This document shows, in pieces, positions 28,476 to 62,370 of a stretch of DNA of 64,000 bases. Within the stretch, counting starts at the first letter, position 1, and each line of letters begins with the position of its first letter. Under the pieces are notes generated by a model. The model was given only the letters and a program-made list of their open reading frames with translations, did not search any database and was not told the origin of the DNA. A program made the translations under genes and the position numbers. This DNA is from a bacterium (lineage in GTDB: Bacteria; Patescibacteriota; Dojkabacteria; JAKAPS01; JAJZLI01), in NCBI GenBank assembly GCA_021816845.1, contig JAKAWT010000001.1, positions 198,087 to 262,086 on the forward strand, written 5' to 3'.

Positions 28476-28858
28476 ACACTAGACTTTTAAAAAGATATTA
28501 TCTCTACAAAGTGATGTCAGGAGGACCTATCAATACTTTAAGTGTCGCCTGTTAATAATCTATTCCTAACATTTTCAAACATCATGATATTCCAATTTAT
28601 ACTAATTAAAAGGTTAAATTTCAAAGCCATACGGCCTTATCTTAAATCATCATTTCATTGCTTAAATATTATCTCTTTATTTTTCAAGTACTGTATCCAG
28701 AGATGAAGTAAAAACTCTCTGCGCTAAAACTCATTATACAGATTTTTATAAAGAGTTATGACAATTTTTCTGATATCAACCTTTGTAAAGATATAATTTA
28801 TATAGCTTAAACTATCTATACCTATTAAATATAGAAAATATTTACTGGATCTTTATTC

Positions 28859-28947
28859 GGAGAGGGTAAGATTCGAACTCACGATTCTATTTTTGTAGAA
28901 TGCTGTTTTTCGAGAACAGCCTGATAAACCACTCCAGCACCTCTCCA
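28859..28947 (-). tRNA. tRNA-Ser (anticodon CGA), type II with long variable arm
   Basis: Hand-folded from the reverse complement: acceptor GGAGAGG/CCTCTCC, D-arm CTG-GAGTGGTTTAT-CAG, anticodon arm CTGTT-CTCGAAA-AACAG, variable stem ATTCTA/TAGAAT, T-arm GTGAG-TTCGAAT-CTTAC. No encoded CCA. Confidence 0.8.
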
Positions 28948-28958
28948 TATACTAATTA

Positions 28959-29032
28959 TCGCTTCTGGTAGGATTCGAACCTGCAATCTCTAGATCCGCA
29001 ATCTAGGGCTTTATCCGATTAAGCTACAGAAG
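28959..29032 (-). tRNA. tRNA-Arg, anticodon read as GCG
   Basis: Hand-folded: acceptor GCTTCTG/CAGAAGC, D-arm GCTT-AATCGGATA-AAGC, anticodon arm CTAGA-TTGCGGA-TCTAG (U33, G37), T-arm GCAGG-TTCGAAT-CCTAC with one C-A mismatch. 74 nt. Confidence 0.7.
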
Positions 29033-29082
29033 CATTTTGAATTCAGACTCCTGAACATAAATCTTGAAATCTATATTTTGTA

Positions 29083-34755: not shown

Positions 34756-34843
34756 GGAGAGGTACCCAAGTGGCTGAAGGGGAGGGTTTGCTAAACCCTT
34801 AGGAATCGAAAGGTTCGCGAGAGTTCGAATCTCTCTCTCTCCG
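34756..34843 (+). tRNA. tRNA-Ser (anticodon GCT), type II
   Basis: Acceptor GGAGAGG/TCTCTCC (one G-U pair), D-arm CCC-AAGTGGCTGAA-GGG, anticodon arm AGGGT-TTGCTAA-ACCCT, long variable arm, T-arm GAGAG-TTCGAAT-CTCTC, discriminator G. Confidence 0.85.
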
Positions 34844-34876
34844 AATCAGAAACTATGAATATAAATTCTATCATAT

Positions 34877-34963
34877 GGAGAGGTGGCCGAGTGGTTTAAG
34901 GCAACAGTCTTGAAAACTGTCAAGGGTGAAAGCTCTTCGTGAGTTCGAATCTCACCCTCTCCG
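34877..34963 (+). tRNA. tRNA-Ser (anticodon TGA), type II
   Basis: Acceptor GGAGAGG/CCTCTCC, D-arm GCC-GAGTGGTTTAA-GGC, anticodon arm ACAGT-CTTGAAA-ACTGT, long variable arm, T-arm GTGAG-TTCGAAT-CTCAC, discriminator G. Confidence 0.85.
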
Positions 34964-35327
34964 AATTAGAGTTATATATATTAAGATAATTTTTAAGATA
35001 ACCTTTATTATGTTTATAAATATTGTTTTAGGATATAGAATATTCACACCAAAGGATTATATATAAGAATTATCTGAATACATACTTAAATTTAATCTCT
35101 AAAAATACTCCTAATATTATTACTGGAGGAGTATCAAATCCACACTACAAATATCTGTCAGAAGCAAAATCCATGGGAGAATATTTAATCTCTAATAATA
35201 CTCTAAAATACAAACTATCATACAAACAATAATGTTATTAATATTACCTATTTAACAGTTAATGATAAAACTATATTCAACCTAATGAATAAAATATATA
35301 ATCTTATATAATAATGAATATATTAAT

Positions 35328-51962: not shown

Positions 51963-52517
51963 ATGGACCTTATAAGACAAGAAATACTTAATTGTACAAA
52001 ATGTGAACTTTGCAAGGGAAGAATACATGCAGTTCCAGGGGAGGGAGCAATAAATGCTCGAATTATGTTTGTTGGAGAAGCTCCAGGTCAAAACGAGGAC
52101 CAACAAGGGATTCCTTTTTGTGGAGCATCTGGAAAATTACTTGATTTGATGCTTGAGAGTATATCACTAAAAAGAGAAGATGTTTTTATAACAAATATAG
52201 TAAAATGTAGACCCAAAGGTAACAGAGATCCAGAGAAGATTGAAATAGATACGTGCTCAAAATATTTAAAAAGGCAGATACTCCTTGTAAACCCCAAGGT
52301 CATATGCACATTAGGAAGATTTTCAATGAATTTGTTCTTCCCGGACTTTAGTATATCAAAAGTTCATGGGCAAATTTTTAAACTTTCAAAATTCAAGATT
52401 ATTCCACTCTATCATCCTGCAGTAGGATTATATAAAGATAGCATGAAAGAAACACTATTTTCTGATTTTAAAATATTAAAACAATTTACCACAATCAAGC
52501 CTAAAGAATTCTCCTAA
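51963..52517 (+). CDS. Uracil-DNA glycosylase, family 4 (Fe-S type)
   Basis: 'CTKCELC', 'IMFVGEAPGQNEDQQGIPFCGASGKLLDLML', 'FITNIVKCRPKGNRDP' and 'HPA' match family-4 UDG. Confidence 0.8.
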   Translation: MDLIRQEILNCTKCELCKGRIHAVPGEGAINARIMFVGEAPGQNEDQQGIPFCGASGKLLDLMLESISLKREDVFITNIVKCRPKGNRDPEKIEIDTCSKYLKRQILLVNPKVICTLGRFSMNLFFPDFSISKVHGQIFKLSKFKIIPLYHPAVGLYKDSMKETLFSDFKILKQFTTIKPKEFS

Positions 52518-53394
52518 GGATAATTACAATCAATATCAAAAGAGAAAATGATATTACAAAAGTAGGGAGTGTGTTAGTTTGAGACTTAGCCTTTTTTGAA
52601 ATAGTCGTAGGAATAACTTTACCATTGCAGTAATTAAAACTACAATAATTCAAGGTGGAATTTTGAACTACATGTACAGTATGAATACTTGGAGTTTTAG
52701 TAACTGGGGGAGGAGAAATATTTGTAGGTTGTTGATTATTAGGATTTACAGATGTTGTATTTGTAATATTTATGGTTATAGGATTTGAATAATTTGATAT
52801 AACTCCACCACTGGTTATATCTAGAGCCGTAACTTCGTATTGACCTAGAGGAATATTTGATGCATTTTCAACATATTCAAAACTACCTACAGAATTTACT
52901 AAAGTTGAATATTCATAATTAGAATTTAGGAAGATTTCTATTTTACTTAGAGGATATGCCATACCATATAAAGAAAGGTTATTGTTTGTGCTTTGAGCAG
53001 TCATGGTTGGAGATAGGTTTATGTTATATACATTGTTTATTCTATCTGACATTACATTATCAGAAATTGAGACAATATTTGAATTTAACCCATTTATATC
53101 CTGAGAATAGATTTGATAATTAGAGATTCCAGAGCTTATCCCAACAAGTGTAACATTAAAATCACCAGAACTTTGGGAAATCCCAGTCCCTACTACTGAA
53201 TTATTTTCTTCAATATATACTAAAGCTCCAGGTGAGGTATATCCTTGAAATACCAAAGTAGTGGGAGATATAGTAACAGATACAGAGATGTTGAAAGTCT
53301 CTGACGCTGCAAAAACAGGACTAATAACCTTTAAGGAGTATACAATGATACTTAATATAGTTAATACTAGAGCAATTCTATATATTTTACACAT
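52501..53394 (-). CDS. Secreted Ser/Thr/Asn-rich surface protein with C-terminal LPxTG-like tripartite anchor (LPTF, hydrophobic stretch, RR)
   Basis: Signal peptide 'MCKIYRIALVLTILSIIVYSLKVISPVFA'. The C-terminus 'KSQTNTLPTFVISFSLLILIVIILRRIL' has the motif + TM + basic tail layout of sortase-type sorting signals. Confidence 0.45.
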   Translation of the reverse strand: MCKIYRIALVLTILSIIVYSLKVISPVFAASETFNISVSVTISPTTLVFQGYTSPGALVYIEENNSVVGTGISQSSGDFNVTLVGISSGISNYQIYSQDINGLNSNIVSISDNVMSDRINNVYNINLSPTMTAQSTNNNLSLYGMAYPLSKIEIFLNSNYEYSTLVNSVGSFEYVENASNIPLGQYEVTALDITSGGVISNYSNPITINITNTTSVNPNNQQPTNISPPPVTKTPSIHTVHVVQNSTLNYCSFNYCNGKVIPTTISKKAKSQTNTLPTFVISFSLLILIVIILRRIL

Positions 53395-53395
53395 T

Positions 53396-54487
53396 TTAAC
53401 TCCTGAGACCAGTACCGGAACCTATTCTGAAACCTGTACCGCTGGTATGAGTACCACTGGTACGAGTACCTTTGGTGCCTGTACTTCTAGTACCTGTGTC
53501 ATTAGAGAATAATGCCTTTAGTGCTCTTAATATATTCCTCCTAAATAATATTAAAAGAATTATTATTGCTATAATGAGGAGTATTTCATATATCGGTATT
53601 ACCCAAAAACTTGTTTTACCTACTAAAGTCCCACTTTTACCTTCACTGTTATAATTAACAAATAGGGACGCAGTATATAATCCAATATAGCCTTTTGTAT
53701 TTATTTGCTCCTGGGATAAACGCACTGCACTAGGGATAACATCCAAACTTTGGATAGATATAGTTTTTACAGTATTACCAAACATATTTGAGATTACAAT
53801 CTTTCCGGTAGGCCTTAATGTTACATTTCCAGTATTTTGAATTTTCTGAATAAAATTGACTATTCCTCCTTGAGTAAACACAGGATTAGTGTAAAAATTA
53901 GTCAATGTTGCATCAACCGTGACGTTTCCTGATATAGTAAGTAATATTAAGGATCCTATCTCTGTGCCAACCCCACTCCCAGATCTTGAGTTTTGACTTG
54001 CTGAGACGGATGCTACTACAGATGCAAACCTACTCCCTGGCTGAGCATCTAAAGGTACATTTATAGTGAATCTTACATATTGATATGAATCAGGAGCAAT
54101 ACTAAGATTTGATGGACTTACAGTAATCCAAGATGCCAGAGAATACTGGTTCGATAATGCAGGAGATTGTAATTGCACCTGTCCTCTATCCCCAACAGGA
54201 GTATAGTTATCTACTAAAATAGCAGTATTTAGAGGATAAGGAGAAGTATTGTATACCTTAATAACATTTGATATCGTACTTCCAGGATTTGCTGTTAAGT
54301 TAGAAAATACAGGGGGGGATATTATGATGCCTAGAGTTTGCTTTGCAGAAGTCTGCCCTGAAGTTTGAGCATGTGAACTTTCAGGTACAACTACATAAAA
54401 AAATAAAGTTGAAAACAAAATAACGGCAAATAACGACCTAAATACAAGTTTTTCCAAACGAAGTTTCCTGAAACAAAGTTTCTTCAT
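53396..54487 (-). CDS. Cell-surface protein: signal peptide, beta-sandwich (DUF916/CARDB-like) ectodomain, C-terminal TM anchor, Gly/Thr-rich cytoplasmic tail
   Basis: N-terminal signal. 'VSPSNLSIAPDSYQYVRFTINVPLDAQPGS'-type strand patterns. C-terminal 'SFWVIPIYEILLIIAIIILLILFRRN', then a 'TGTRSTGTKGTRTSGT' tail. Confidence 0.45.
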   Translation of the reverse strand: MKKLCFRKLRLEKLVFRSLFAVILFSTLFFYVVVPESSHAQTSGQTSAKQTLGIIISPPVFSNLTANPGSTISNVIKVYNTSPYPLNTAILVDNYTPVGDRGQVQLQSPALSNQYSLASWITVSPSNLSIAPDSYQYVRFTINVPLDAQPGSRFASVVASVSASQNSRSGSGVGTEIGSLILLTISGNVTVDATLTNFYTNPVFTQGGIVNFIQKIQNTGNVTLRPTGKIVISNMFGNTVKTISIQSLDVIPSAVRLSQEQINTKGYIGLYTASLFVNYNSEGKSGTLVGKTSFWVIPIYEILLIIAIIILLILFRRNILRALKALFSNDTGTRSTGTKGTRTSGTHTSGTGFRIGSGTGLRS

Positions 54488-54558
54488 CTAATAAATATAC
54501 TATAACTACTTTGATAGTATCAGAATTATACTACTAATACAATAATCCAAACCTTTAA

Positions 54559-55620
54559 TTAGTAAGTTGGTGTAACTACATAATCAAGATTATTTGTATA
54601 TGTACCAGCTGGTTGAGCTGCAGTAACTCCAAGCTGAAAATTCACATATTCACTATCACCTGATGATGATGTTGCAGATGACTTAGTAGCTAGGGTAACT
54701 GGTGTAGCAGGATTCACTGGTATTGGTTCATATATAGCATTTGAGGTGAATAATGCAGAGTTATAATCTCCTGATGTAACATTAACTCCAAAACCAGTAG
54801 TTGTATTTGTAGTCCAAGTTCCAGCAGTAACATTAGGTATTGTACTTGAACTTGAATCAGTCAATAATTGGTTCTCTTGCAAAGTTACTGTATAACCGTA
54901 AGCTGCATTAGTTGTTGTTGATATTTGTTGAGCTGCAACATTAGTAGTTGCAACATTAAAATGTCCAAAAGGTAATGTGGTCGATGTTGTGGTTACAGTA
55001 GTTGCATTTTCTGCTCCAGTTGTAGAAGTCGCAGTACCTGAAGCTATTCCAGTTACAGTAAATGATAATGAAGGATCCATTGTACCTGTAACGACAACTT
55101 GTGTCACAGTAGTTGTTGCCATAACACCATAATCAGTAACAGAAGGTGTGGAACTGTTTGAAGTCACTTGGACATAAAACGTTCCAGCACTAGGGTTAGT
55201 AACAGAAGCAACAGTAACACTAACAGTTGCTGATGGTGCCGTTGCAGCAGATAATGTAACAGTTAAAACTCCGGTGGATGAGTTATATGCTCCAGTTGCA
55301 GTTGCACTACCAAACCCAGATAACGTTATAGTTGGGGTAGCTGACATTGAAAGACCCGATGGTACAGTTGTACCAGTTGCAGTTGTTGCATATTGGATAT
55401 CTATAGTAGCGACTGCAGTTGTCGTATTACTTGGATTCCATTGAATAGTTTCATTAGCTACAGTTCCAGGATTTGAGTTAGAAAGAGTAATAGATGCATG
55501 AGACACTGTGACTGTTCCAGAAGCAGCAACACTCTGAAGGAACAAAACACTACTCATTGATAATATTATAAAAAATGATACTAAACTAGCTAGAGGTCTT
55601 CTTATATCTTTTAATCTCAT
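54559..55620 (-). CDS. Secreted Thr-rich protein with WxL-like C-terminal motif (Tyr in place of Trp)
   Basis: Signal peptide 'LASLVSFFIILSMSSVLFLQSVAA'. About 45% Thr/Ser/Ala. C-terminus 'QPAGTYTNNLDYVVTPTY' resembles the WxL-domain terminal consensus 'GxYxgxLtWtLxxxP'. Confidence 0.45.
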   Translation of the reverse strand: MRLKDIRRPLASLVSFFIILSMSSVLFLQSVAASGTVTVSHASITLSNSNPGTVANETIQWNPSNTTTAVATIDIQYATTATGTTVPSGLSMSATPTITLSGFGSATATGAYNSSTGVLTVTLSAATAPSATVSVTVASVTNPSAGTFYVQVTSNSSTPSVTDYGVMATTTVTQVVVTGTMDPSLSFTVTGIASGTATSTTGAENATTVTTTSTTLPFGHFNVATTNVAAQQISTTTNAAYGYTVTLQENQLLTDSSSSTIPNVTAGTWTTNTTTGFGVNVTSGDYNSALFTSNAIYEPIPVNPATPVTLATKSSATSSSGDSEYVNFQLGVTAAQPAGTYTNNLDYVVTPTY

Positions 55621-56575
55621 GATTTACTTTTTCTAAAATTAAATTAAAACCAACACTTAGTAAGTGTTTATTTTTTACTAATACCAGAATACAGAAACCT
55701 ATTAAAAATGTCAATAATATTATAAGGTATATTGGAATTATATAGATATTCTTTATAATTTTACTACGTTGGTTATATCCATATAAAAGTGTAGATGAGA
55801 TTGTATAACTACCTATATTAAAATTATATGCAATATTTTTATCTAAAATTCTTTTTTCATTTTGCAGAATCAAATGTACTGGGAGATTAAAATTCTTACT
55901 CTTACCACTAGATTTAACAGATAAATATCCATGTTCATTAATATATGTATTACCTAAATTCTGGATTACAGTTTCTGTATTAATTGTAGGAATATTAAAC
56001 AACGGAAAATAGAAATTGGAAAAGTGAAGAGTGTTAGTTTTTATGGATATATTATTTATTCTTGAATTATAGTTTATATTCCCCCCAATTGTGATAAAGA
56101 ATAATGATCCCAGTCTTGATATAACCCCTACATTAGAATTTAATTTTTCTGTATTTAACGATTGAAAGAAAACTGTAACATAGTGTCCACCAGGTGTGGC
56201 ATCTTTGGGAACTTTTATTTCTATAGGTACATCTATAGTACCTTTTGGAGGAACAGCATAATTTAGATTTGGAAAAGAAAACCAAGATGCAGAAGCTAAT
56301 CTTGATTTATCGACAAAAAAACTAATATTACCATTTAGTCCTACAGTCCCAAAGTTTTGAGCATATACTTTAATGGCTATAGGAGCTCTTGTATTGTTAT
56401 AAAATGTCACATATTTGATAATTTGTGATCCTCTATCTAGAGTAATTATATTTAGAGAAGGATAAATAGTTTCATTCAAATTTGGATGTGTAAATGATGC
56501 ATAAGAATTTTTAGCTATCTTAATGTTGGTAACTAGAAAAATCACCAGTAGTGTAATTATTAAAATTTTTCTCAT
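55586..56575 (-). CDS. Cell-surface protein, paralog of 53396-54487 (signal peptide, beta-sandwich ectodomain, C-terminal TM anchor)
   Basis: 'IEIKVPKDATPGGHYVTVFFQS' and C-terminal 'NIYIIPIYLIILLTFLIGFCILVLVKNK' parallel the other anchored protein (shared IPIY-TM motif). Overlaps the upstream gene by 35 nt. Confidence 0.45.
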   Translation of the reverse strand: MRKILIITLLVIFLVTNIKIAKNSYASFTHPNLNETIYPSLNIITLDRGSQIIKYVTFYNNTRAPIAIKVYAQNFGTVGLNGNISFFVDKSRLASASWFSFPNLNYAVPPKGTIDVPIEIKVPKDATPGGHYVTVFFQSLNTEKLNSNVGVISRLGSLFFITIGGNINYNSRINNISIKTNTLHFSNFYFPLFNIPTINTETVIQNLGNTYINEHGYLSVKSSGKSKNFNLPVHLILQNEKRILDKNIAYNFNIGSYTISSTLLYGYNQRSKIIKNIYIIPIYLIILLTFLIGFCILVLVKNKHLLSVGFNLILEKVNHEIKRYKKTSS

Positions 56576-56601
56576 AACCTAATCACAGTTTGTATAATAA
56601 T

Positions 56602-59600
56602 TTAGAATGATGATACTACAGTATACACAATATTAGTTTGATATGTACCCGGAGATTGTATAGATTGTACTGCAACCTTATAGGTGATAGTGTAGTTAGT
56701 TGGGGTGGTAGTATAATTTGACCCTGTAATATTTGTTTGGTTCTCAGCTACAACATCTCCAGGCCCTGATTGTGAGAAAGGTGCATATAGTGTCCCGTTA
56801 GAAAAAAGGTTGACACCATTTATATCTGTAGCAGAACTGGTATACCCAAATCCATAATCTCCACTAGGCCATGAGGCTGGCGATGCATAAGACCCAGCAG
56901 AGAAATTAGGTATTGTATTTGAAGAATTTTGCAGTGACGTTAATATTGACGTTTCATAAGCAGAAATTGTATACCCGTTATAAGCATTTGTTAAAACTGA
57001 TAAAGTTGAGGTGTTAGTCGTAGTATAGGAATTAGTAGCATTCCAATCACCTAAATTAACAGCTGAAGAATTGAGAGAGAAAGACAGTGTAGGAACAACA
57101 TATTGGCCTGATGATGTAACTGTAGTAGTTAAACCAGCATTATTGATGGCCTGCACACTAACATAATATGTTTGACCGGTATGTAGAGGAAGAGATGATA
57201 AAGAAACTGTGTTATATGGACTAGGGTTATTTAGGACAACTGAAGATGAAGAATACGCATATATATTTGTACCTCCAGGAGTAGTTCCAACTGCGACTTG
57301 ATAAGGCGTAGAGGCAAGTCCTGAACAGGTATCAGAAAAACCTGTCCAATTTGCACCCAGTGATGATATTGAGGCAGTAGTATTAGTTTCTGTCCCAGTT
57401 ACTGACCCATCATATACTGTTCCTGCTGTGGGTGCACTATCAGATACGGAAAAATTAGGATTCACAGAATTGAAAACTACAGGTGAAGATAAACCACTTG
57501 AGTTCTTCACAAATGCCTGCCAATGATATCCAGTACAATTAGTTAACCCTGTGACATCTACAATCCCTGTTACAGCAGTACCAGAATAATTTACAGCAGT
57601 ACCAGAATAGTTTGGTGTACCAGTAAATGCCGTACCATTTTGTTGAAGCTCGATTTCTGGGGTAAGAGTATCAGTACTATTTGGTGATGACATAGAGAAT
57701 TGAAACACAACATTCGTGGTTATACCACTCGTAGTCCAAGTATCATTAGTAATTTGTGTAGTTCCATTTGATTGAAGTTGTTCCAAAGATGTAGGAGCAT
57801 TTGGTGCACCAGCTGTAGGTGGTGGTGTAAAATTATATTCAAAATTTACATTCTCCAAAGATGTATTTCCCACGTTATCATATATAACGACATTTAAATA
57901 GTACATACCAGATGTTGTAAGTGATGGGGAAAGATAACCTTCAGTTGTTTGAGTACTTACAGGGTAATCAGTAGCAGTCTGCCCGAAATATACACCATAA
58001 TTTGTAATCCCAGAACCTTGATCATATCCACCTAAAAATTCAAAATAGGGAGTGGTGTAAGTATATGGGGTAGGATTCCCATATGCAAGTTGAGTTAACC
58101 CTGAAGTATCTTCAACATTAATATTATCCATATTCATATTGATGCTGTCAGAAGTGGCATCAGTTACAGCACCAAGAGTGAGAGTAGTCATATTAGACAC
58201 ACCAGTATTCTGACTTGTCAAAGACACTTGTTGTGAACCATTCAAATATGTATAAATACTCCCAGTAGTACCACTAATTGATAGATCAAATACAATAACA
58301 TTCCAAGTATTTAAAGGTAAAATAGTCGTACCTTGAGAAGAAGTAGCTCCAACAGAGTTAGTAGCCTGTAGTACTGGTCCAGAGCTTGTATCTAGCAGGT
58401 TTAAAGTTGCAATTGTACCTGATGCTCCAGATATACTCATAAGTGTAATGCTATCACCAGTTGCTGCAAATGCCACAGCAGAAACATTTATATACATCCT
58501 CACTTGAGCAGAAGAAGTATTAAATGTATCATTAGCAATATAGCTTGTACCTGCTGCAGAGGTTGCCATGTTTACCGAGTATGTTCCTTGTAATACATGA
58601 CCTTGTATGTTGTTTTGGATAAGTGGGAGAGATGTTCCTCCATCTGAAGTCCAACCACCTGCAGGAGATGAAGTAGTCAAAATTGTCCCACTCTCAAATC
58701 CATTTGAGAATAAAGCTGTTGGTTGTCCAGACCAAGCAATGACATTTGTACCTCCAGATATAGGGGATGATGTGTCAATACCAAAGTCAGGATTGCCTCC
58801 CATTGCAACCCATGAGCTTACCCCATCTGCATTTTCAACTGTAGCCTGCCAGTGGTACTGAGTATTCGATGGAAGCCCAGAAATAGTGACACTTGCAACA
58901 ATACTTGTACCTGAATATGAATATGCTATACTTTTATACACTCCAACTCCTGATGTTACAAAATTAGTAGTTGAATTTGTGAAGGCAGTACCATTAGGCT
59001 GTACTTCTACCAACAAATATAAAGTGTCTGGATTATTTGGACTTGATATTGTAGCACCCAAATTTATACTATTATGGTTAAGCCACGACCCAGATGTAAT
59101 TGATGAAGAAGAGACACTTGATGTAGAGACAGCAACACCTGTTGGAGTTAAAATTGTACCATTTGCAGTTATCGAAACTTCAGTTGAAGGAAGAGTTTCC
59201 CCAGAAGATGTTATACCAGTAACTTCATAATAGTAGGTAGTCCCATATGGTATATTTCCACCAACTGATGATGTAGATGAGGATGCAATTGTGGGGGCAG
59301 TTCCTCCACTTGAAGGTGGAGAACCTGAAGAGGGAGTATTAAACCCTGAATCTATAAATGTAGTTGTAACAGAGTTATTTATTAGGAAATATGTAGTTTC
59401 TCCTCCTGAAGAACTCCCTTTATATACTTTATATGAGGTTGCCCCACTCAAGGCATTCCACGTAATTGTGTTTTGATTAGTATTGGTATATGCAACATTT
59501 AAAGTTGATGGAACATTAAGATATCCCCACAATACATATTGATATGTGTTAGTACCATCATATCCTCCCACTGTGTATACATACCCATTGTATATTACAG

Positions 59601-62370
59601 CATTTTCATTATCTATAGTTTGAGGTAGAGAATTTGTTGATGTTGCCCACGTTCCGGGTACTCCTCCAGTACCTATTTGTGCATATTCTATTGTAGATAG
59701 ATAATTACTACCAGTAAAACCCCCAATTTCATATATATATCCGTTATATACTATAGAGGCTGAATAATCAGTATTTTGAGGTAATGAATTGGTTGACGTA
59801 CTGAAAGTACCTGGTGCTCCGCCTGTACCTATAAGGGAATAGTCTACTGTATTTAAATAACTCCCATCATATCCGCCAAATACATAGATATACCCATTAT
59901 ACACTACTGAAGTATCGTGAGTTTGAGCATTAGGTAGAGAATTTGTTGATGTTGCCCACGTTCCAGGTACTCCTCCAGTACCTATTTGAGAATAATAAAC
60001 TGTTGATATACGTGCAGACGTTGTTCCGTCATACCCTCCAAGCTCATATATGTATCCTCCATATTCAACTGAGGTAGAAGAATTGATTTCTGCAGGAAGA
60101 GGGTTTGTTGCAGTAGTCCACGCACCTGGAGCTCCACCTGTACCTATAAGTGAGTAGTAAACTGCAGAAGATATTGCAGTACTACTAGTAGATCCTCCTA
60201 ATACATAAATATATCCTTGATACACCACTGAAGTTGCAAAATCCAGTCCCACAGGAAGAGCATTTGCTGCTGTTGCCCAAGTACCTGGTACACCTTGATT
60301 ATTAATCTGTGAATAGTAAACCGAAGATAAATAAGTTGAACCATTCAATCCACCTATATCATATATATATCCACCATATTCAACTGATGTGGAATATAGA
60401 ATAGATGCTGGCACAGCATTATTAGGGTTTACCCATGTACCTACTGTCCCGCCAGAAGCAGTTGGTGTATACTCTACTATAGTCACTGCAGCACTACCGT
60501 TATATCCACCCATATCATATATGTATCCGTTATATACAACTGAGGTAGTTCCAAACAAAGAAGTATTAAGGGATGTTGTAGCTGTCCATGACCCTAGTGT
60601 CCCTCCAGAGTTTATTGGTACATAATACACAGAATTTGTAGCAGCAGTAGTAAAGCCCCCTATCTCGTATATATATCCATTATATTCTACTGAAGTAGAA
60701 TTATATGTAGCAACAGGTAGGGAGGTTGTAGCTGCCCATGATGACCCTAGGGTACCATTAGAGTTTATAGGTATAGAATTTACCGTAGTCACTGCTGCAC
60801 TACCATTGTATCCTGCTATATCATATATATATCCGTTATATGCTATTGAGGTAGAGTTGTCCATCTTGACGGGCAGGGCTGTGGTAGAATTCCATGCTGA
60901 ACCTAAGGTACCATTAGAATTTATAGCTATATAATATACTGTAGTCACTGCTGCACCAGCAACATACCCTCCAATTTCGTAGATATAACCATTATATACT
61001 ACAGATGTAGCCGAATCTATAGAAGGAGAGAGAGATGTGGTAGAATTCCATGTACCTAATGCACCAGAAGATAATATTTGAGCGTAATACACAGCATTTG
61101 TAGATGTAGAACAAGAAGTATCTGTACACCCCCCGATTTCATATATATAACCATTGTATACTACAGACGTAGCGGAATTTAATGGTACAGGTATAGGAGT
61201 TGTAGTTATCCATGATGTACCTAACCCACCTGATGATAAAATCTGAGCATAATATACATTAGACAAGGTTGTCCCACCACTATTCTCACCACCGATCTCA
61301 TACACATATCCGTTATACTCCACAGATGTAGCATATTCATCAGTTTGGGGTAGTCCAGCGCTAGATAATAGTGGATTATTATTCCCTATGTTAATCCAAT
61401 TTAGATTTCCTGTATCTGTAAGGTATGAATTAGTGGTATTTATGTACTGAGCCATTGTTGACGACCCAATACCTCTATACACATTATATGAAGTTGCTCC
61501 CACTACAGGATTCCAAGATATTTTATTTTCTGACGTAGATCCTGTCGTGGTTACTGAAACTGCAGCTGATGGAGTAGTTTGCCCATAAGAAGTTAGAGCT
61601 GCAACTTCATAGTAATAAGTATTTGCAGATAAAGTTCCTCCCAAGAGTGATTGAGTTAAAGTTGTAGGAGCATTTGGAACAGGAGGAATAGTGAGTGTAA
61701 CAGTATTAGAACTAATACTCCCTGCAACCACATACAGATTATCAGTTCCTATAACAGAACCAGATGGTATTGTAAATACTATTTGAGTATTGGACCATGA
61801 TGTAACATCCCCTGTTGGGACTGTGTTACCTTGTATATTAATATTATTAGTTGATGTATCATAATTACCTGTACCAGGAGCACCAAATTCTGATCCATTT
61901 ATAGTAACACTTGTACCATCATATCCTGATGTAGGCGAAATTGAAGTTATACAAGGATTGATGGTAAATGCAAAAGATGCTGTACGATTTCCAATATTAA
62001 CATTTATATTCCCTGTAATAGTTCCTAAAGGTACCACTACTCCCGCTATTTGCGTATTAGACCAAGTATAGTTACTATTTGAAGGCGATGAACCATTTAC
62101 AGTAACAGTTGAAGAGCCCTGTGTTGATCCAAAATTTGATCCATTTATATTAATTGTATCTCCTACTCTTGCAGATGTAACAGACGTTGTAACAGTTGAT
62201 GAACATGCCGTTGCAGTAAGATCTACTGATGATATTGAAGGAGGCGGTCCAGCATATATAACACTTGTAATAAATATTAAGAATATAAGGAATATAGGTA
62301 TAGATATAAATAAAATCAAGCTATAGAATTTATTATATAGAATTTTATCTAAAAGTAGGCCTTTACCCAT
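56602..62370 (-). CDS. Giant (1922 aa) secreted surface protein: N-terminal signal anchor, Ig-like domains, about 15 Kelch-like 'NGYIYEIGG' repeats, two FN3-like modules, and a C-terminal WxL-like (YxV) motif
   Basis: Single uninterrupted ORF with N-terminal 'LILFISIPIFLIFLIFITSVIYA'. The repeats 'TSVVYNGYIYEIGGY...YYAQI...G.LG.W' are roughly 50 aa each. 'GATSYNVYRG' and 'GATSYKVYKG' are FN3-like. C-terminus 'SPGTYQTNIVYTVVSSF'. Confidence 0.6.
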   Translation of the reverse strand: MGKGLLLDKILYNKFYSLILFISIPIFLIFLIFITSVIYAGPPPSISSVDLTATACSSTVTTSVTSARVGDTININGSNFGSTQGSSTVTVNGSSPSNSNYTWSNTQIAGVVVPLGTITGNINVNIGNRTASFAFTINPCITSISPTSGYDGTSVTINGSEFGAPGTGNYDTSTNNINIQGNTVPTGDVTSWSNTQIVFTIPSGSVIGTDNLYVVAGSISSNTVTLTIPPVPNAPTTLTQSLLGGTLSANTYYYEVAALTSYGQTTPSAAVSVTTTGSTSENKISWNPVVGATSYNVYRGIGSSTMAQYINTTNSYLTDTGNLNWINIGNNNPLLSSAGLPQTDEYATSVEYNGYVYEIGGENSGGTTLSNVYYAQILSSGGLGTSWITTTPIPVPLNSATSVVYNGYIYEIGGCTDTSCSTSTNAVYYAQILSSGALGTWNSTTSLSPSIDSATSVVYNGYIYEIGGYVAGAAVTTVYYIAINSNGTLGSAWNSTTALPVKMDNSTSIAYNGYIYDIAGYNGSAAVTTVNSIPINSNGTLGSSWAATTSLPVATYNSTSVEYNGYIYEIGGFTTAATNSVYYVPINSGGTLGSWTATTSLNTSLFGTTSVVYNGYIYDMGGYNGSAAVTIVEYTPTASGGTVGTWVNPNNAVPASILYSTSVEYGGYIYDIGGLNGSTYLSSVYYSQINNQGVPGTWATAANALPVGLDFATSVVYQGYIYVLGGSTSSTAISSAVYYSLIGTGGAPGAWTTATNPLPAEINSSTSVEYGGYIYELGGYDGTTSARISTVYYSQIGTGGVPGTWATSTNSLPNAQTHDTSVVYNGYIYVFGGYDGSYLNTVDYSLIGTGGAPGTFSTSTNSLPQNTDYSASIVYNGYIYEIGGFTGSNYLSTIEYAQIGTGGVPGTWATSTNSLPQTIDNENAVIYNGYVYTVGGYDGTNTYQYVLWGYLNVPSTLNVAYTNTNQNTITWNALSGATSYKVYKGSSSGGETTYFLINNSVTTTFIDSGFNTPSSGSPPSSGGTAPTIASSSTSSVGGNIPYGTTYYYEVTGITSSGETLPSTEVSITANGTILTPTGVAVSTSSVSSSSITSGSWLNHNSINLGATISSPNNPDTLYLLVEVQPNGTAFTNSTTNFVTSGVGVYKSIAYSYSGTSIVASVTISGLPSNTQYHWQATVENADGVSSWVAMGGNPDFGIDTSSPISGGTNVIAWSGQPTALFSNGFESGTILTTSSPAGGWTSDGGTSLPLIQNNIQGHVLQGTYSVNMATSAAGTSYIANDTFNTSSAQVRMYINVSAVAFAATGDSITLMSISGASGTIATLNLLDTSSGPVLQATNSVGATSSQGTTILPLNTWNVIVFDLSISGTTGSIYTYLNGSQQVSLTSQNTGVSNMTTLTLGAVTDATSDSINMNMDNINVEDTSGLTQLAYGNPTPYTYTTPYFEFLGGYDQGSGITNYGVYFGQTATDYPVSTQTTEGYLSPSLTTSGMYYLNVVIYDNVGNTSLENVNFEYNFTPPPTAGAPNAPTSLEQLQSNGTTQITNDTWTTSGITTNVVFQFSMSSPNSTDTLTPEIELQQNGTAFTGTPNYSGTAVNYSGTAVTGIVDVTGLTNCTGYHWQAFVKNSSGLSSPVVFNSVNPNFSVSDSAPTAGTVYDGSVTGTETNTTASISSLGANWTGFSDTCSGLASTPYQVAVGTTPGGTNIYAYSSSSVVLNNPSPYNTVSLSSLPLHTGQTYYVSVQAINNAGLTTTVTSSGQYVVPTLSFSLNSSAVNLGDWNATNSYTTTNTSTLSVLTNAYNGYTISAYETSILTSLQNSSNTIPNFSAGSYASPASWPSGDYGFGYTSSATDINGVNLFSNGTLYAPFSQSGPGDVVAENQTNITGSNYTTTPTNYTITYKVAVQSIQSPGTYQTNIVYTVVSSF
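59490..61330 (-). repeat. Tandem array of about 15 diverged ~150-165-nt coding repeats (Kelch/propeller blades) inside the giant gene
   Basis: Recurrent DNA words (for example 'tatatatatccgttatat', 'gtacctatttg', 'gttgatgttgcccacgttcc') that encode the repeated NGYIY[ED]IGG / 'PGTWA' peptide units. Confidence 0.6.

Follow-up and report, generated by a model that had tools for sequence, protein, structure and literature searches.

Background

In 2026, Troman et al. (bioRxiv 10.64898/2026.03.03.709456) reported on Pam pili, surface filaments of ultra-small bacteria of the candidate phyla radiation (CPR). Here we analyse five adjacent genes in a 64-kb stretch of DNA from contig JAKAWT010000001.1 (64,000 nucleotides (nt), referred to below as the window). 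We consider it likely that they form a compact and divergent Pam-type pilus operon of a CPR/Patescibacteria-like bacterium, whose product is assembled by donor-strand exchange without an usher.

Cryo-electron microscopy of filaments of Candidatus Mycosynbacter amalyticus identified two pilins, PamA and PamB. The filaments are held together by donor-strand exchange, and both pilins form long homopolymeric stretches. PamC and PamD are FimC/PapD-like chaperones with a C-terminal transmembrane (TM) helix. The tip subunit PamT consists of the C-terminal domain only; PamE is also encoded in the operon. PamR, which is RbmA-like and has an additional strand at its N-terminus and a TM helix at its C-terminus, was proposed to act as terminator and anchor. 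Homologues are known from Saccharimonadia and Microgenomatia, and the operon lies beside ATP-synthase genes. The evolutionary origin of the pilus was left open, and the system was held to be distinct from every known filament system (bioRxiv 10.64898/2026.03.03.709456).

Three NCBIfam models cover this system: NF058578 for PamR (cutoff 300 bits), NF058579 for PamT (240 bits) and NF058581, CPR_Pam_pilin_C (55 bits). The locus L019, which we used as reference, adjoins ATP-synthase genes and reaches 340 bits for PamR, 268 bits for PamT and 134-158 bits for its three pilin C-terminal domains.

Organization of the cluster

The cluster occupies positions 52501-62370 of the minus strand, to which all gene and domain coordinates given for it refer. 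It consists of five co-directional open reading frames (ORFs) in the order g5, g4, g3, g2, g1, located where a first-pass annotation, made from the letters without database searches, had placed five adjacent genes for exported proteins. The genes are tightly spaced, with gaps of +26 (g5/g4), -35 (g4/g3), +71 (g3/g2) and +1 nt (g2/g1). A hydrophobic, signal-peptide-like segment is present at the N-terminus of all five products. One C-terminal TM segment is found in each of g1, g2 and g4, none in g3 and g5.

The same gene order (giant protein, chaperone, pilin, chaperone, g1-like protein) recurs in five other metagenome-assembled genomes, with pilin identities of 69-81%; the first-pass annotation had regarded synteny as a check of its proposal, and it is preserved. 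A further locus, L001, is the same sequence as the window copy, taken from another assembly. The window has matches in contig DAIBVS010000004.1 of assembly GCA_027425395.1 and in a metagenome contig of ENA. Given the preserved gene order and the terminal motif described below, the five-gene arrangement is more than chance.

The C-terminal domain shared by g3 and g5

The pilin g3 (54559..55620, 353 amino acids (aa)) starts with a hydrophobic signal peptide (aa 1-33), which is followed by an N-terminal beta-sandwich domain (aa 34-172), by the linker TQVVVTGTM (aa 173-181, nt 55078-55104), proposed from its motif to be a donor strand, and by a C-terminal domain (aa 182-353). The AlphaFold2 (AF2) model displays the two-domain layout of pilins. 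The N-terminal sandwich has predicted local distance difference test (pLDDT) scores of 80-95 and the beta-rich C-terminal domain of 63-78, and residues 175-181 between them are unstructured. The linker motif VxVTGTM is conserved among g3 relatives.

It is the C-terminal domain that connects the cluster to Pam pili. NF058581 matches g3 with E 9.2e-7 over full length and 4.6e-8 when the domain is taken alone, and it matches the C-terminal 159 aa of g5 with E 2.2e-9 (37.6 bits). Both domains span positions 2-148 of the 148 in this profile. The two terminal motifs, said in the first-pass annotation to be near-identical, are indeed present but share 6 of 16 residues; it is the end-to-end profile match that makes them parts of one domain.

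From an alignment of g3, g5 and g3 homologues (A4), a profile of the shared domain was built. It retrieves 3253 representative clusters at E<=1e-3, 1683 of them at E<=1e-10. Among the matches listed, the domain is C-terminal in all 150, in proteins of 183-1158 aa. A family set of 138 sequences was composed of 136 listed matches and the two window sequences. The Pam_pilin_C model matches 92 of these 138 (best E 1.3e-44) and the PamT model 22. Judged by this family membership, the domain shared by g3 and g5 is most probably the Pam pilin C-terminal domain, so that the system, which the first-pass annotation had thought possibly undescribed, has been in the literature since 2026.

Of 148 distant representatives, 138 retain the terminal motif in the form Q..[GAS].{1,2}Y...[LIVM].[YWF].{3,8}$, in line with the conservation check proposed for it earlier. 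Its distal aromatic residue is Tyr in 137 of the 138 members with the motif and Phe in one, never Trp. Together with an internal TNAxxG[YFW] motif, it occurs only in g3 and g5 among the ORFs of the window; the C-terminal domain of g5 contains the two motifs as TNAYNGY and QSPGTYQTNIVYTVVSSF.

The same domain had first been taken for a variant of the WxL domain. None of the five proteins matches the Pfam WxL model at E<=1. PF13731 does not match the isolated C-terminal regions of g3 and g5 at E<=10, nor any of the 138 family members at E<=0.1. By comparison, all eight genuine Firmicutes WxL domains used as positive control match it (best E 1.4e-45). Pfam WxL identity was rejected on these grounds. 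Sequence and profile searches of the pilin against Protein Data Bank (PDB) sequences returned nothing, the copy used being evidently without PamA and PamB chains.

The anchored paralogues g2 and g4

g4 (55586..56575, 329 aa) is a chaperone candidate. Its signal peptide is followed by a pair of beta-sandwich domains, one WxLIP-like and one PapD-like, and by a C-terminal TM helix (aa 282-301, nt 55673-55732), which in TM prediction and the AF2 model precedes a cytoplasmic helix. The second candidate, g2 (53396..54487, 363 aa), has its predicted TM helix at aa 296-314 (nt 53546-53602). As the first-pass annotation had it, g4 and g2 are paralogous, with 25% identity across 236 aa (E 1e-13), and the strings it quoted, among them WVIPIYEILLI, do occur in the sequence. 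Where g4 has the predicted helix, the tail of g2 after the TM segment (53396-53530) is made of about 45 aa of Gly/Thr/Arg-rich low complexity, presumably cytoplasmic (…SNDTGTRSTGTKGTRTSGTHTSGTGFRIGSGTGLRS). In the database annotation, g2 has 353 aa, its start being placed ten codons downstream of the one used here.

A profile built from g4, g2 and the homologues found first retrieves 344 proteins of about 310-350 aa. All matches with an informative source name come from CPR organisms. In the reference locus L019, the gene at chaperone position, between pilins and PamR, has no NCBIfam model of its own. It belongs to the g2/g4 family with E 1.6e-56, and g2 aligns to it with 32% identity over 307 aa (E 4e-41).

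The first-pass annotation had also called g2 and g4 DUF916/CscA-like, which proves right as remote homology. PF06030 (WxLIP_PGBD, that is DUF916) matches 88 of 122 g2/g4-family members at E<=0.01; g4 itself gives E 0.059, and both g2 and g4 stay under the Pfam gathering threshold. Against the sequences of the whole PDB, the family profile has a sole match, EfmWxLIP1 (E 4.5e-7). When the family was compared by hhalign with seven Firmicutes WxLIPs from annotated plasmid loci, a probability of 97.1% (E 7e-11) was obtained over the DUF916 domain.

Structure prediction points the same way. The AF2 model of g4 (pLDDT 90, predicted template modelling score 0.76) consists of two beta-sandwich domains, the TM helix and the cytoplasmic helix. 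In Foldseek its top matches are Enterococcus faecium WxLIP (9i1y_A, E 4.5e-11) and 9i25_C, a WxLIP bound to long WxL. These are followed by RbmA and then by the chaperone-usher (CU) chaperones CfaA, YadV, CupB2, CsuC, FimC and Caf1M; E values for WxLIP and for CfaA, YadV, CsuC, FimC and Caf1M lie between 1e-11 and 1e-7. PF11797 (DUF3324), which the earlier proposal would have led one to expect, has no match in g2, g4 or the 122 family members. The g4 model contains a second beta-sandwich besides the TM helix, and its Foldseek alignment extends over 268 columns against a WxLIP chain of 267 residues.

As far as profiles and predicted folds can tell, the assignment of g2 and g4 as remote DUF916/WxLIP homologues is solid. 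Since the chaperone-position gene of L019 falls in the g2/g4 family, Pam-type chaperones, g2 and g4, and Firmicutes WxLIP constitute one superfamily.

Members of the family, DUF916-like and TM-anchored, were also seen in more distant CPR contigs (L015:7317-9746, L016:7302-9922, L017:7306-9784 and L018:7364-9777, the chaperone of the last carrying a Magasanikbacteria name). There, each is flanked on either side by a small secreted protein with GxYxAxxTxTAxxN at its end. The hidden Markov model (HMM) of the Pam C-terminal domain does not match these small proteins, which look like a third kind of subunit handled by chaperones of this family. A MerR-type helix-turn-helix (HTH) gene and a gene for an HTH protein of about 310 aa lie upstream of the chaperone-family gene in L015 and L016. 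Downstream, C-terminally anchored and/or very large proteins are encoded in L015, L016 and L018.

The giant protein g5

g5 (56602..62370, 1922 aa) is an exported giant and the proposed tip adhesin. After the signal peptide, it contains two TIG/IPT immunoglobulin (Ig)-like domains (approximately aa 50-230, 61681..62223; Pfam TIG in 2 stretches, E 1.8e-9), a long Kelch propeller region with repeated YNGYIYEIGG units (approximately aa 340-960, 59491..61353), further Ig-like or unassigned regions and, at its end, the Pam-type pilin domain (approximately aa 1764-1922, 56605..57081), a proposed donor-strand acceptor. Pfam Kelch_1 matches in 9 stretches (E 3.7e-22) and PF24681 with E 2.9e-28; this region is the putative host-binding module. 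The VxVTGTM linker, which precedes the C-terminal domain in g3, is absent before that domain in g5, as fits a subunit that would accept a strand only.

Orthologues of g5 measure 1610-2233 aa and all end in the same C-terminal domain (E 1e-17 to 1e-20). Elsewhere, Laminin_G_3, LVIVD-propeller or Kelch/TIG modules occur in large proteins with this domain. The combination of a constant pilin domain with a binding head that varies is also the pattern of FimH, PapG and large WxL proteins.

When full-length g5 is searched by hmmscan or hmmsearch, its Pam-domain match vanishes; it appears when the last 160-230 aa or so are scanned alone. The loss is probably due to the composition-bias filter of HMMER. 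On account of this filter, giant Pam tip proteins would be systematically missed by routine annotation, although they are obvious candidates for host recognition by episymbionts.

Two Saccharimonadia-type pam operons also have a giant (more than 2100 aa, starting …INQQINFQGRLLN…) downstream of PamR (L019:11289-17710, L021:6226-7371). It probably corresponds to what the Pam preprint calls a "tail fibre-like protein". Both contigs end short of its C-terminus.

The anchor candidate g1

g1 (52501..53394, 297 aa) is proposed to be terminator and membrane anchor. Its signal peptide is followed by the N-terminal strand ISVSVTISPTTLVF (aa 36-49, nt 53248-53289), Pfam Big_6 Ig-like domain(s) (E 4e-8), a Pro/Thr-rich stalk and a predicted C-terminal TM helix (aa 275-293, nt 52516-52572). 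This mature N-terminus resembles the linker and first strand of g3, VVVTGTMDPSLSF. The g1 orthologues retain this motif, and when 197 ORFs were scanned with it as written, g1-type proteins alone were matched. True PamR proteins behave alike: their N-termini SLTGTVP and GLSGTMP copy the linker of their own pilins, LTGTMPESLVF.

The layout of g1 (signal peptide, linker-like N-terminal strand, Big_6 Ig, C-terminal TM helix) is thus analogous to that of PamR. Homology to PamR was tried and rejected, as g1 has no match to NF058578 at E<=1 and gives E 2.4 in BLASTP against true PamR.

The string LPTF near the end of g1 had been interpreted as part of a sortase-type sorting signal. It is confined to the window copy and L001, being absent from four of five orthologues (L004-L007) and replaced by MFPTV in the fifth (L003), so this interpretation was abandoned and g1 is read as a TM-anchored Ig protein. 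The sortase motif TLxTC was found in none of the window ORFs, a weak test which covers the window only. The 3' end of g1 overlaps a convergent UDG-family ORF (51963-52517, plus strand) by 17 nt, at 52501-52517.

Proposed assembly and alternatives

The analysis shows to which family the pilin C-terminal domains belong, what the chaperone candidates are homologous to and which fold they are predicted to have, that gene order is conserved and that a donor motif is shared; strand exchange, subunit order, polymer length and the ligand of g5 are inferred. All five products would be exported by the Sec pathway. Held in the membrane by their C-terminal helix, g2 and g4 would act as chaperones, and a strand or hairpin of their DUF916-like first domain would be inserted in the groove that the incomplete Ig fold leaves open at the C-termini of g5 and g3. 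g5 may start the fibre at the distal tip, since it has no donor linker. The g3 linker, VVVTGTM, would displace the chaperone strand and occupy the groove of the preceding subunit, by which g3 could polymerise head to tail. Growth would end when g1 provides the last g3 with its own N-terminal strand, which resembles the linker, and the TM helix of g1 would then tether the fibre to the membrane. The fibre would display g5, with Kelch propellers and TIG domains as variable binding modules, for contact with the host cell. A thin adhesive surface fibre is the most likely product of the five genes.

Several observations weigh against such a Pam-type pilus. Scores for NF058581 (29-33 bits for g3, 37.6 bits for g5) stay under the curated cutoff. 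No stand-alone PamT ORF is present in the window, the C-terminal domains of g5 and g3 giving 9.5 and 21 bits with NF058579. A PamR match is missing in g1, and the locus is not beside ATP-synthase genes. The donor-strand pairing is read from motifs, and with a single pilin gene the locus does not give the length of the fibre.

The last point bears on an alternative in which the cluster specifies a membrane-tethered adhesin: one g5, one g3 as adaptor and one g1 as anchor would be joined in a short donor-strand stalk, and no long pilus would exist. The single pilin gene and the very large tip protein suit this arrangement, and the logic of donor motifs would fit a 1:1:1 complex equally well. We nevertheless find it unlikely, because g3 possesses both a donor linker and an acceptor domain, permitting self-polymerisation, and because its relatives PamA and PamB form long homopolymers. 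The gap of 71 nt after g3 is also compatible with differential expression, though no terminator was found there.

According to a second alternative, close to the first-pass annotation, g3 and g5 bind peptidoglycan non-covalently through a Tyr variant of the WxL domain and are stabilised by DUF916-type WxLIPs, and no fibre is formed. The homology of g2 and g4 to WxLIP is real, and the analogy of gene content with genuine WxL loci holds, as seen for instance in the Enterococcus mundtii locus L011. Moreover, conserved blocks of the two domains are collinear: lpFG in the Pam C-terminal domain corresponds to l.FG of WxL in the first strand region, TNAxnG[FY]xVTV to RGtNAGWxLtV in the proximal block, and QxAGxYTnTLTYIxTP to YxTTLTWxLxxxP in the distal block. 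In local hhalign, the domain scores 23.0 against WxL, above all of 55 column-permuted WxL alignments (10.1 +/- 1.8, maximum 16.7), the reversed WxL alignment (12.6) and the pilin N-terminal domain (10.7).

The corresponding hhalign probability is 4-5%, with the last strand alone aligned confidently, and HMM-versus-sequence scores are barely above those of reversed decoys. Fold searches did not return 9i25_A, the WxL chain of known structure. (With one E. mundtii WxL domain as query, phmmer found nothing in the PDB, and a profile was needed to reach 9i25_A.) A relationship between the Pam C-terminal domain and the WxL domain is possible but unproven. As the distal aromatic is never Trp, as the Pfam WxL model matches none of the 138 family members, among them g3 and g5, and as the same domain family forms filaments in M. 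amalyticus by cryo-electron microscopy (bioRxiv 10.64898/2026.03.03.709456), a peptidoglycan-bound complex is quite improbable here, and donor-strand polymerisation with a membrane anchor is favoured over the non-covalent anchoring proposed at first.

Finally, the idea that unrelated secreted and membrane proteins are neighbours by chance, sharing motifs of low-complexity origin, could invoke the Ser+Thr content of 29-35% in g3 and g5 and the full-length g5 match dropped by the bias filter, but it is effectively refuted already by the synteny in five other genomes, the end-to-end profile matches, the 1683 representatives at E<=1e-10 and the confinement of the motifs to two window ORFs.

Possible kinship with WxL clusters

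The WxLIP homology of Pam-type chaperones suggests a common origin, and perhaps a common mechanism, for WxL clusters and Pam pili. For both it is predicted that the anchored protein lends a strand to the incomplete beta-sandwich of its partner, which is thereby completed (PMC10599100). The geometry in Hassan et al. is the one predicted for PamC/D with the pilin C-terminal domain (bioRxiv 10.64898/2026.03.03.709456). That preprint does not mention WxL or DUF916. None of the DUF916/WxL literature that we found ties these proteins to CPR, and one full text does not contain the word "chaperone". The link between Pam chaperones and WxLIP thus appears to be unreported.

Going further, Pam pili and WxL/Csc clusters might be two branches of one ancient usher-less pathway, the WxL domain being the Trp variant of the Pam domain; we put this forward tentatively, as a conjecture on which we would not insist. 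In envelopes without outer membrane, a membrane-anchored DUF916-type chaperone would complete an incomplete beta-sandwich subunit and then hand it over, and in WxL clusters the donor-strand order would be large WxL (tip), small WxL and LPXTG anchor, so that these proteins would do more than rest on peptidoglycan. The chaperone half of this proposal is well supported. The subunit half draws on the collinear motifs, the weak above-null profile score and the N-terminal G-x-I-x-F strands common to small WxL and LPXTG proteins.

These strands were observed in Firmicutes plasmid WxL loci (L008-L012, e.g. L011:4532-5747). At the mature N-terminus, small WxL proteins of these loci have a strand of the form [TS]x[ENT]Gx[IV]xF, followed by a Pro-rich linker, in common with the small proteins anchored by LPXTG or a TM segment. 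Examples are ETEGSIRFTG (LPXTG protein) and TTEGKIEFRP (small WxL) of E. mundtii, and TTNGQVTFNG and TTNGVVVFTT of Enterococcus faecalis. The extension is absent from the large WxL proteins examined. By analogy, it parallels the g1/g3 donor motif and may mark N-terminal donor strands.

Implications

The locus indicates that the Pam pilus exists in a stripped-down form, in which a single pilin, two chaperones and an anchor other than PamR are combined with a giant tip protein that bears propellers. Current annotation models, with their lineages and score thresholds, do not catch this form. For the origin of Pam pili, homology of their chaperones to WxLIP/DUF916 offers a concrete, testable answer.

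WxL clusters of enterococci, listeriae and lactobacilli have been linked to virulence and adhesion. The WxL field gains an unconsidered mechanistic hypothesis, chaperone-assisted donor-strand assembly, and through the kinship of g2/g4 with WxLIP two surface systems so far treated as unrelated become linked. In this respect the intuition behind the first-pass annotation is partly vindicated.

Genomic surroundings

The cluster is bordered by dnaJ on one side and, on the other, by a block with the UDG-family gene, a Lon-like AAA gene, a VIT1 gene and nusA. Its G+C content is about 33-38%, compared with about 30% over the whole window. A scan of the locus for promoters and terminators was uninformative, counts being no higher than in shuffled sequence. 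In the window, two tRNA pairs were detected, tRNA-Ser(cga) with tRNA-Arg(gcg) at 28857-29034 on the minus strand and tRNA-Ser(gct) with tRNA-Ser(tga) at 34756-34964 on the plus strand. Neither rRNA nor any Rfam family other than tRNAs reached the gathering score there.

Comparison with known systems

Classical and archaic CU pili (Fim/Pap, CFA/I, Csu, Caf1) differ from the cluster in several respects. They depend on an outer-membrane usher, which is lacking here, and the envelope in question is presumably without outer membrane. Their chaperones are soluble, whereas g2 and g4 are membrane-anchored. As donor they use an N-terminal extension, in contrast to the interdomain linker proposed for g3.

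WxL/Csc clusters, found in Lactobacillales, Listeria and Bacillales, are closer in content. They contain a DUF916-type anchored protein homologous to g2/g4, a small and a large protein with common C-terminal domain, the large one bearing N-terminal binding modules, and a small anchored protein. They differ by Trp at positions where Tyr or Phe is found here, and the C-terminal domain of g3 and g5 has no WxL profile match. Their anchor is attached by LPXTG and sortase (CscD), whereas that of g1 is a TM helix. Sequence searches do not detect DUF3324, the second WxLIP domain, in g2 and g4. WxL proteins, finally, are described as peptidoglycan-bound and not filamentous.

The closest relatives are Pam pili. 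In both cases a linker connects the N-terminal beta-sandwich of the pilins with a truncated Ig domain at the C-terminus, probably of one family, two-domain chaperones end in a TM helix, all components have signal peptides and an usher is missing. For termination, an Ig-type protein is available that has a strand at its N-terminus and a TM helix at its C-terminus. On the other hand, one pilin is found here instead of PamA, PamB and PamE, and it is devoid of cysteines, which occur in pairs in PamA and PamB. The acceptor domain is borne by a Kelch/TIG giant of 1922 aa instead of a stand-alone PamT, the anchor g1 is not a PamR homologue, and dnaJ/nusA flanks replace the ATP-synthase genes. All scores are under the NCBIfam curated cutoffs. 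Since Pam pili have been published and are covered by NCBIfam models, the system is not new in kind; the locus is a distinct variant of it, located below the thresholds of these models.

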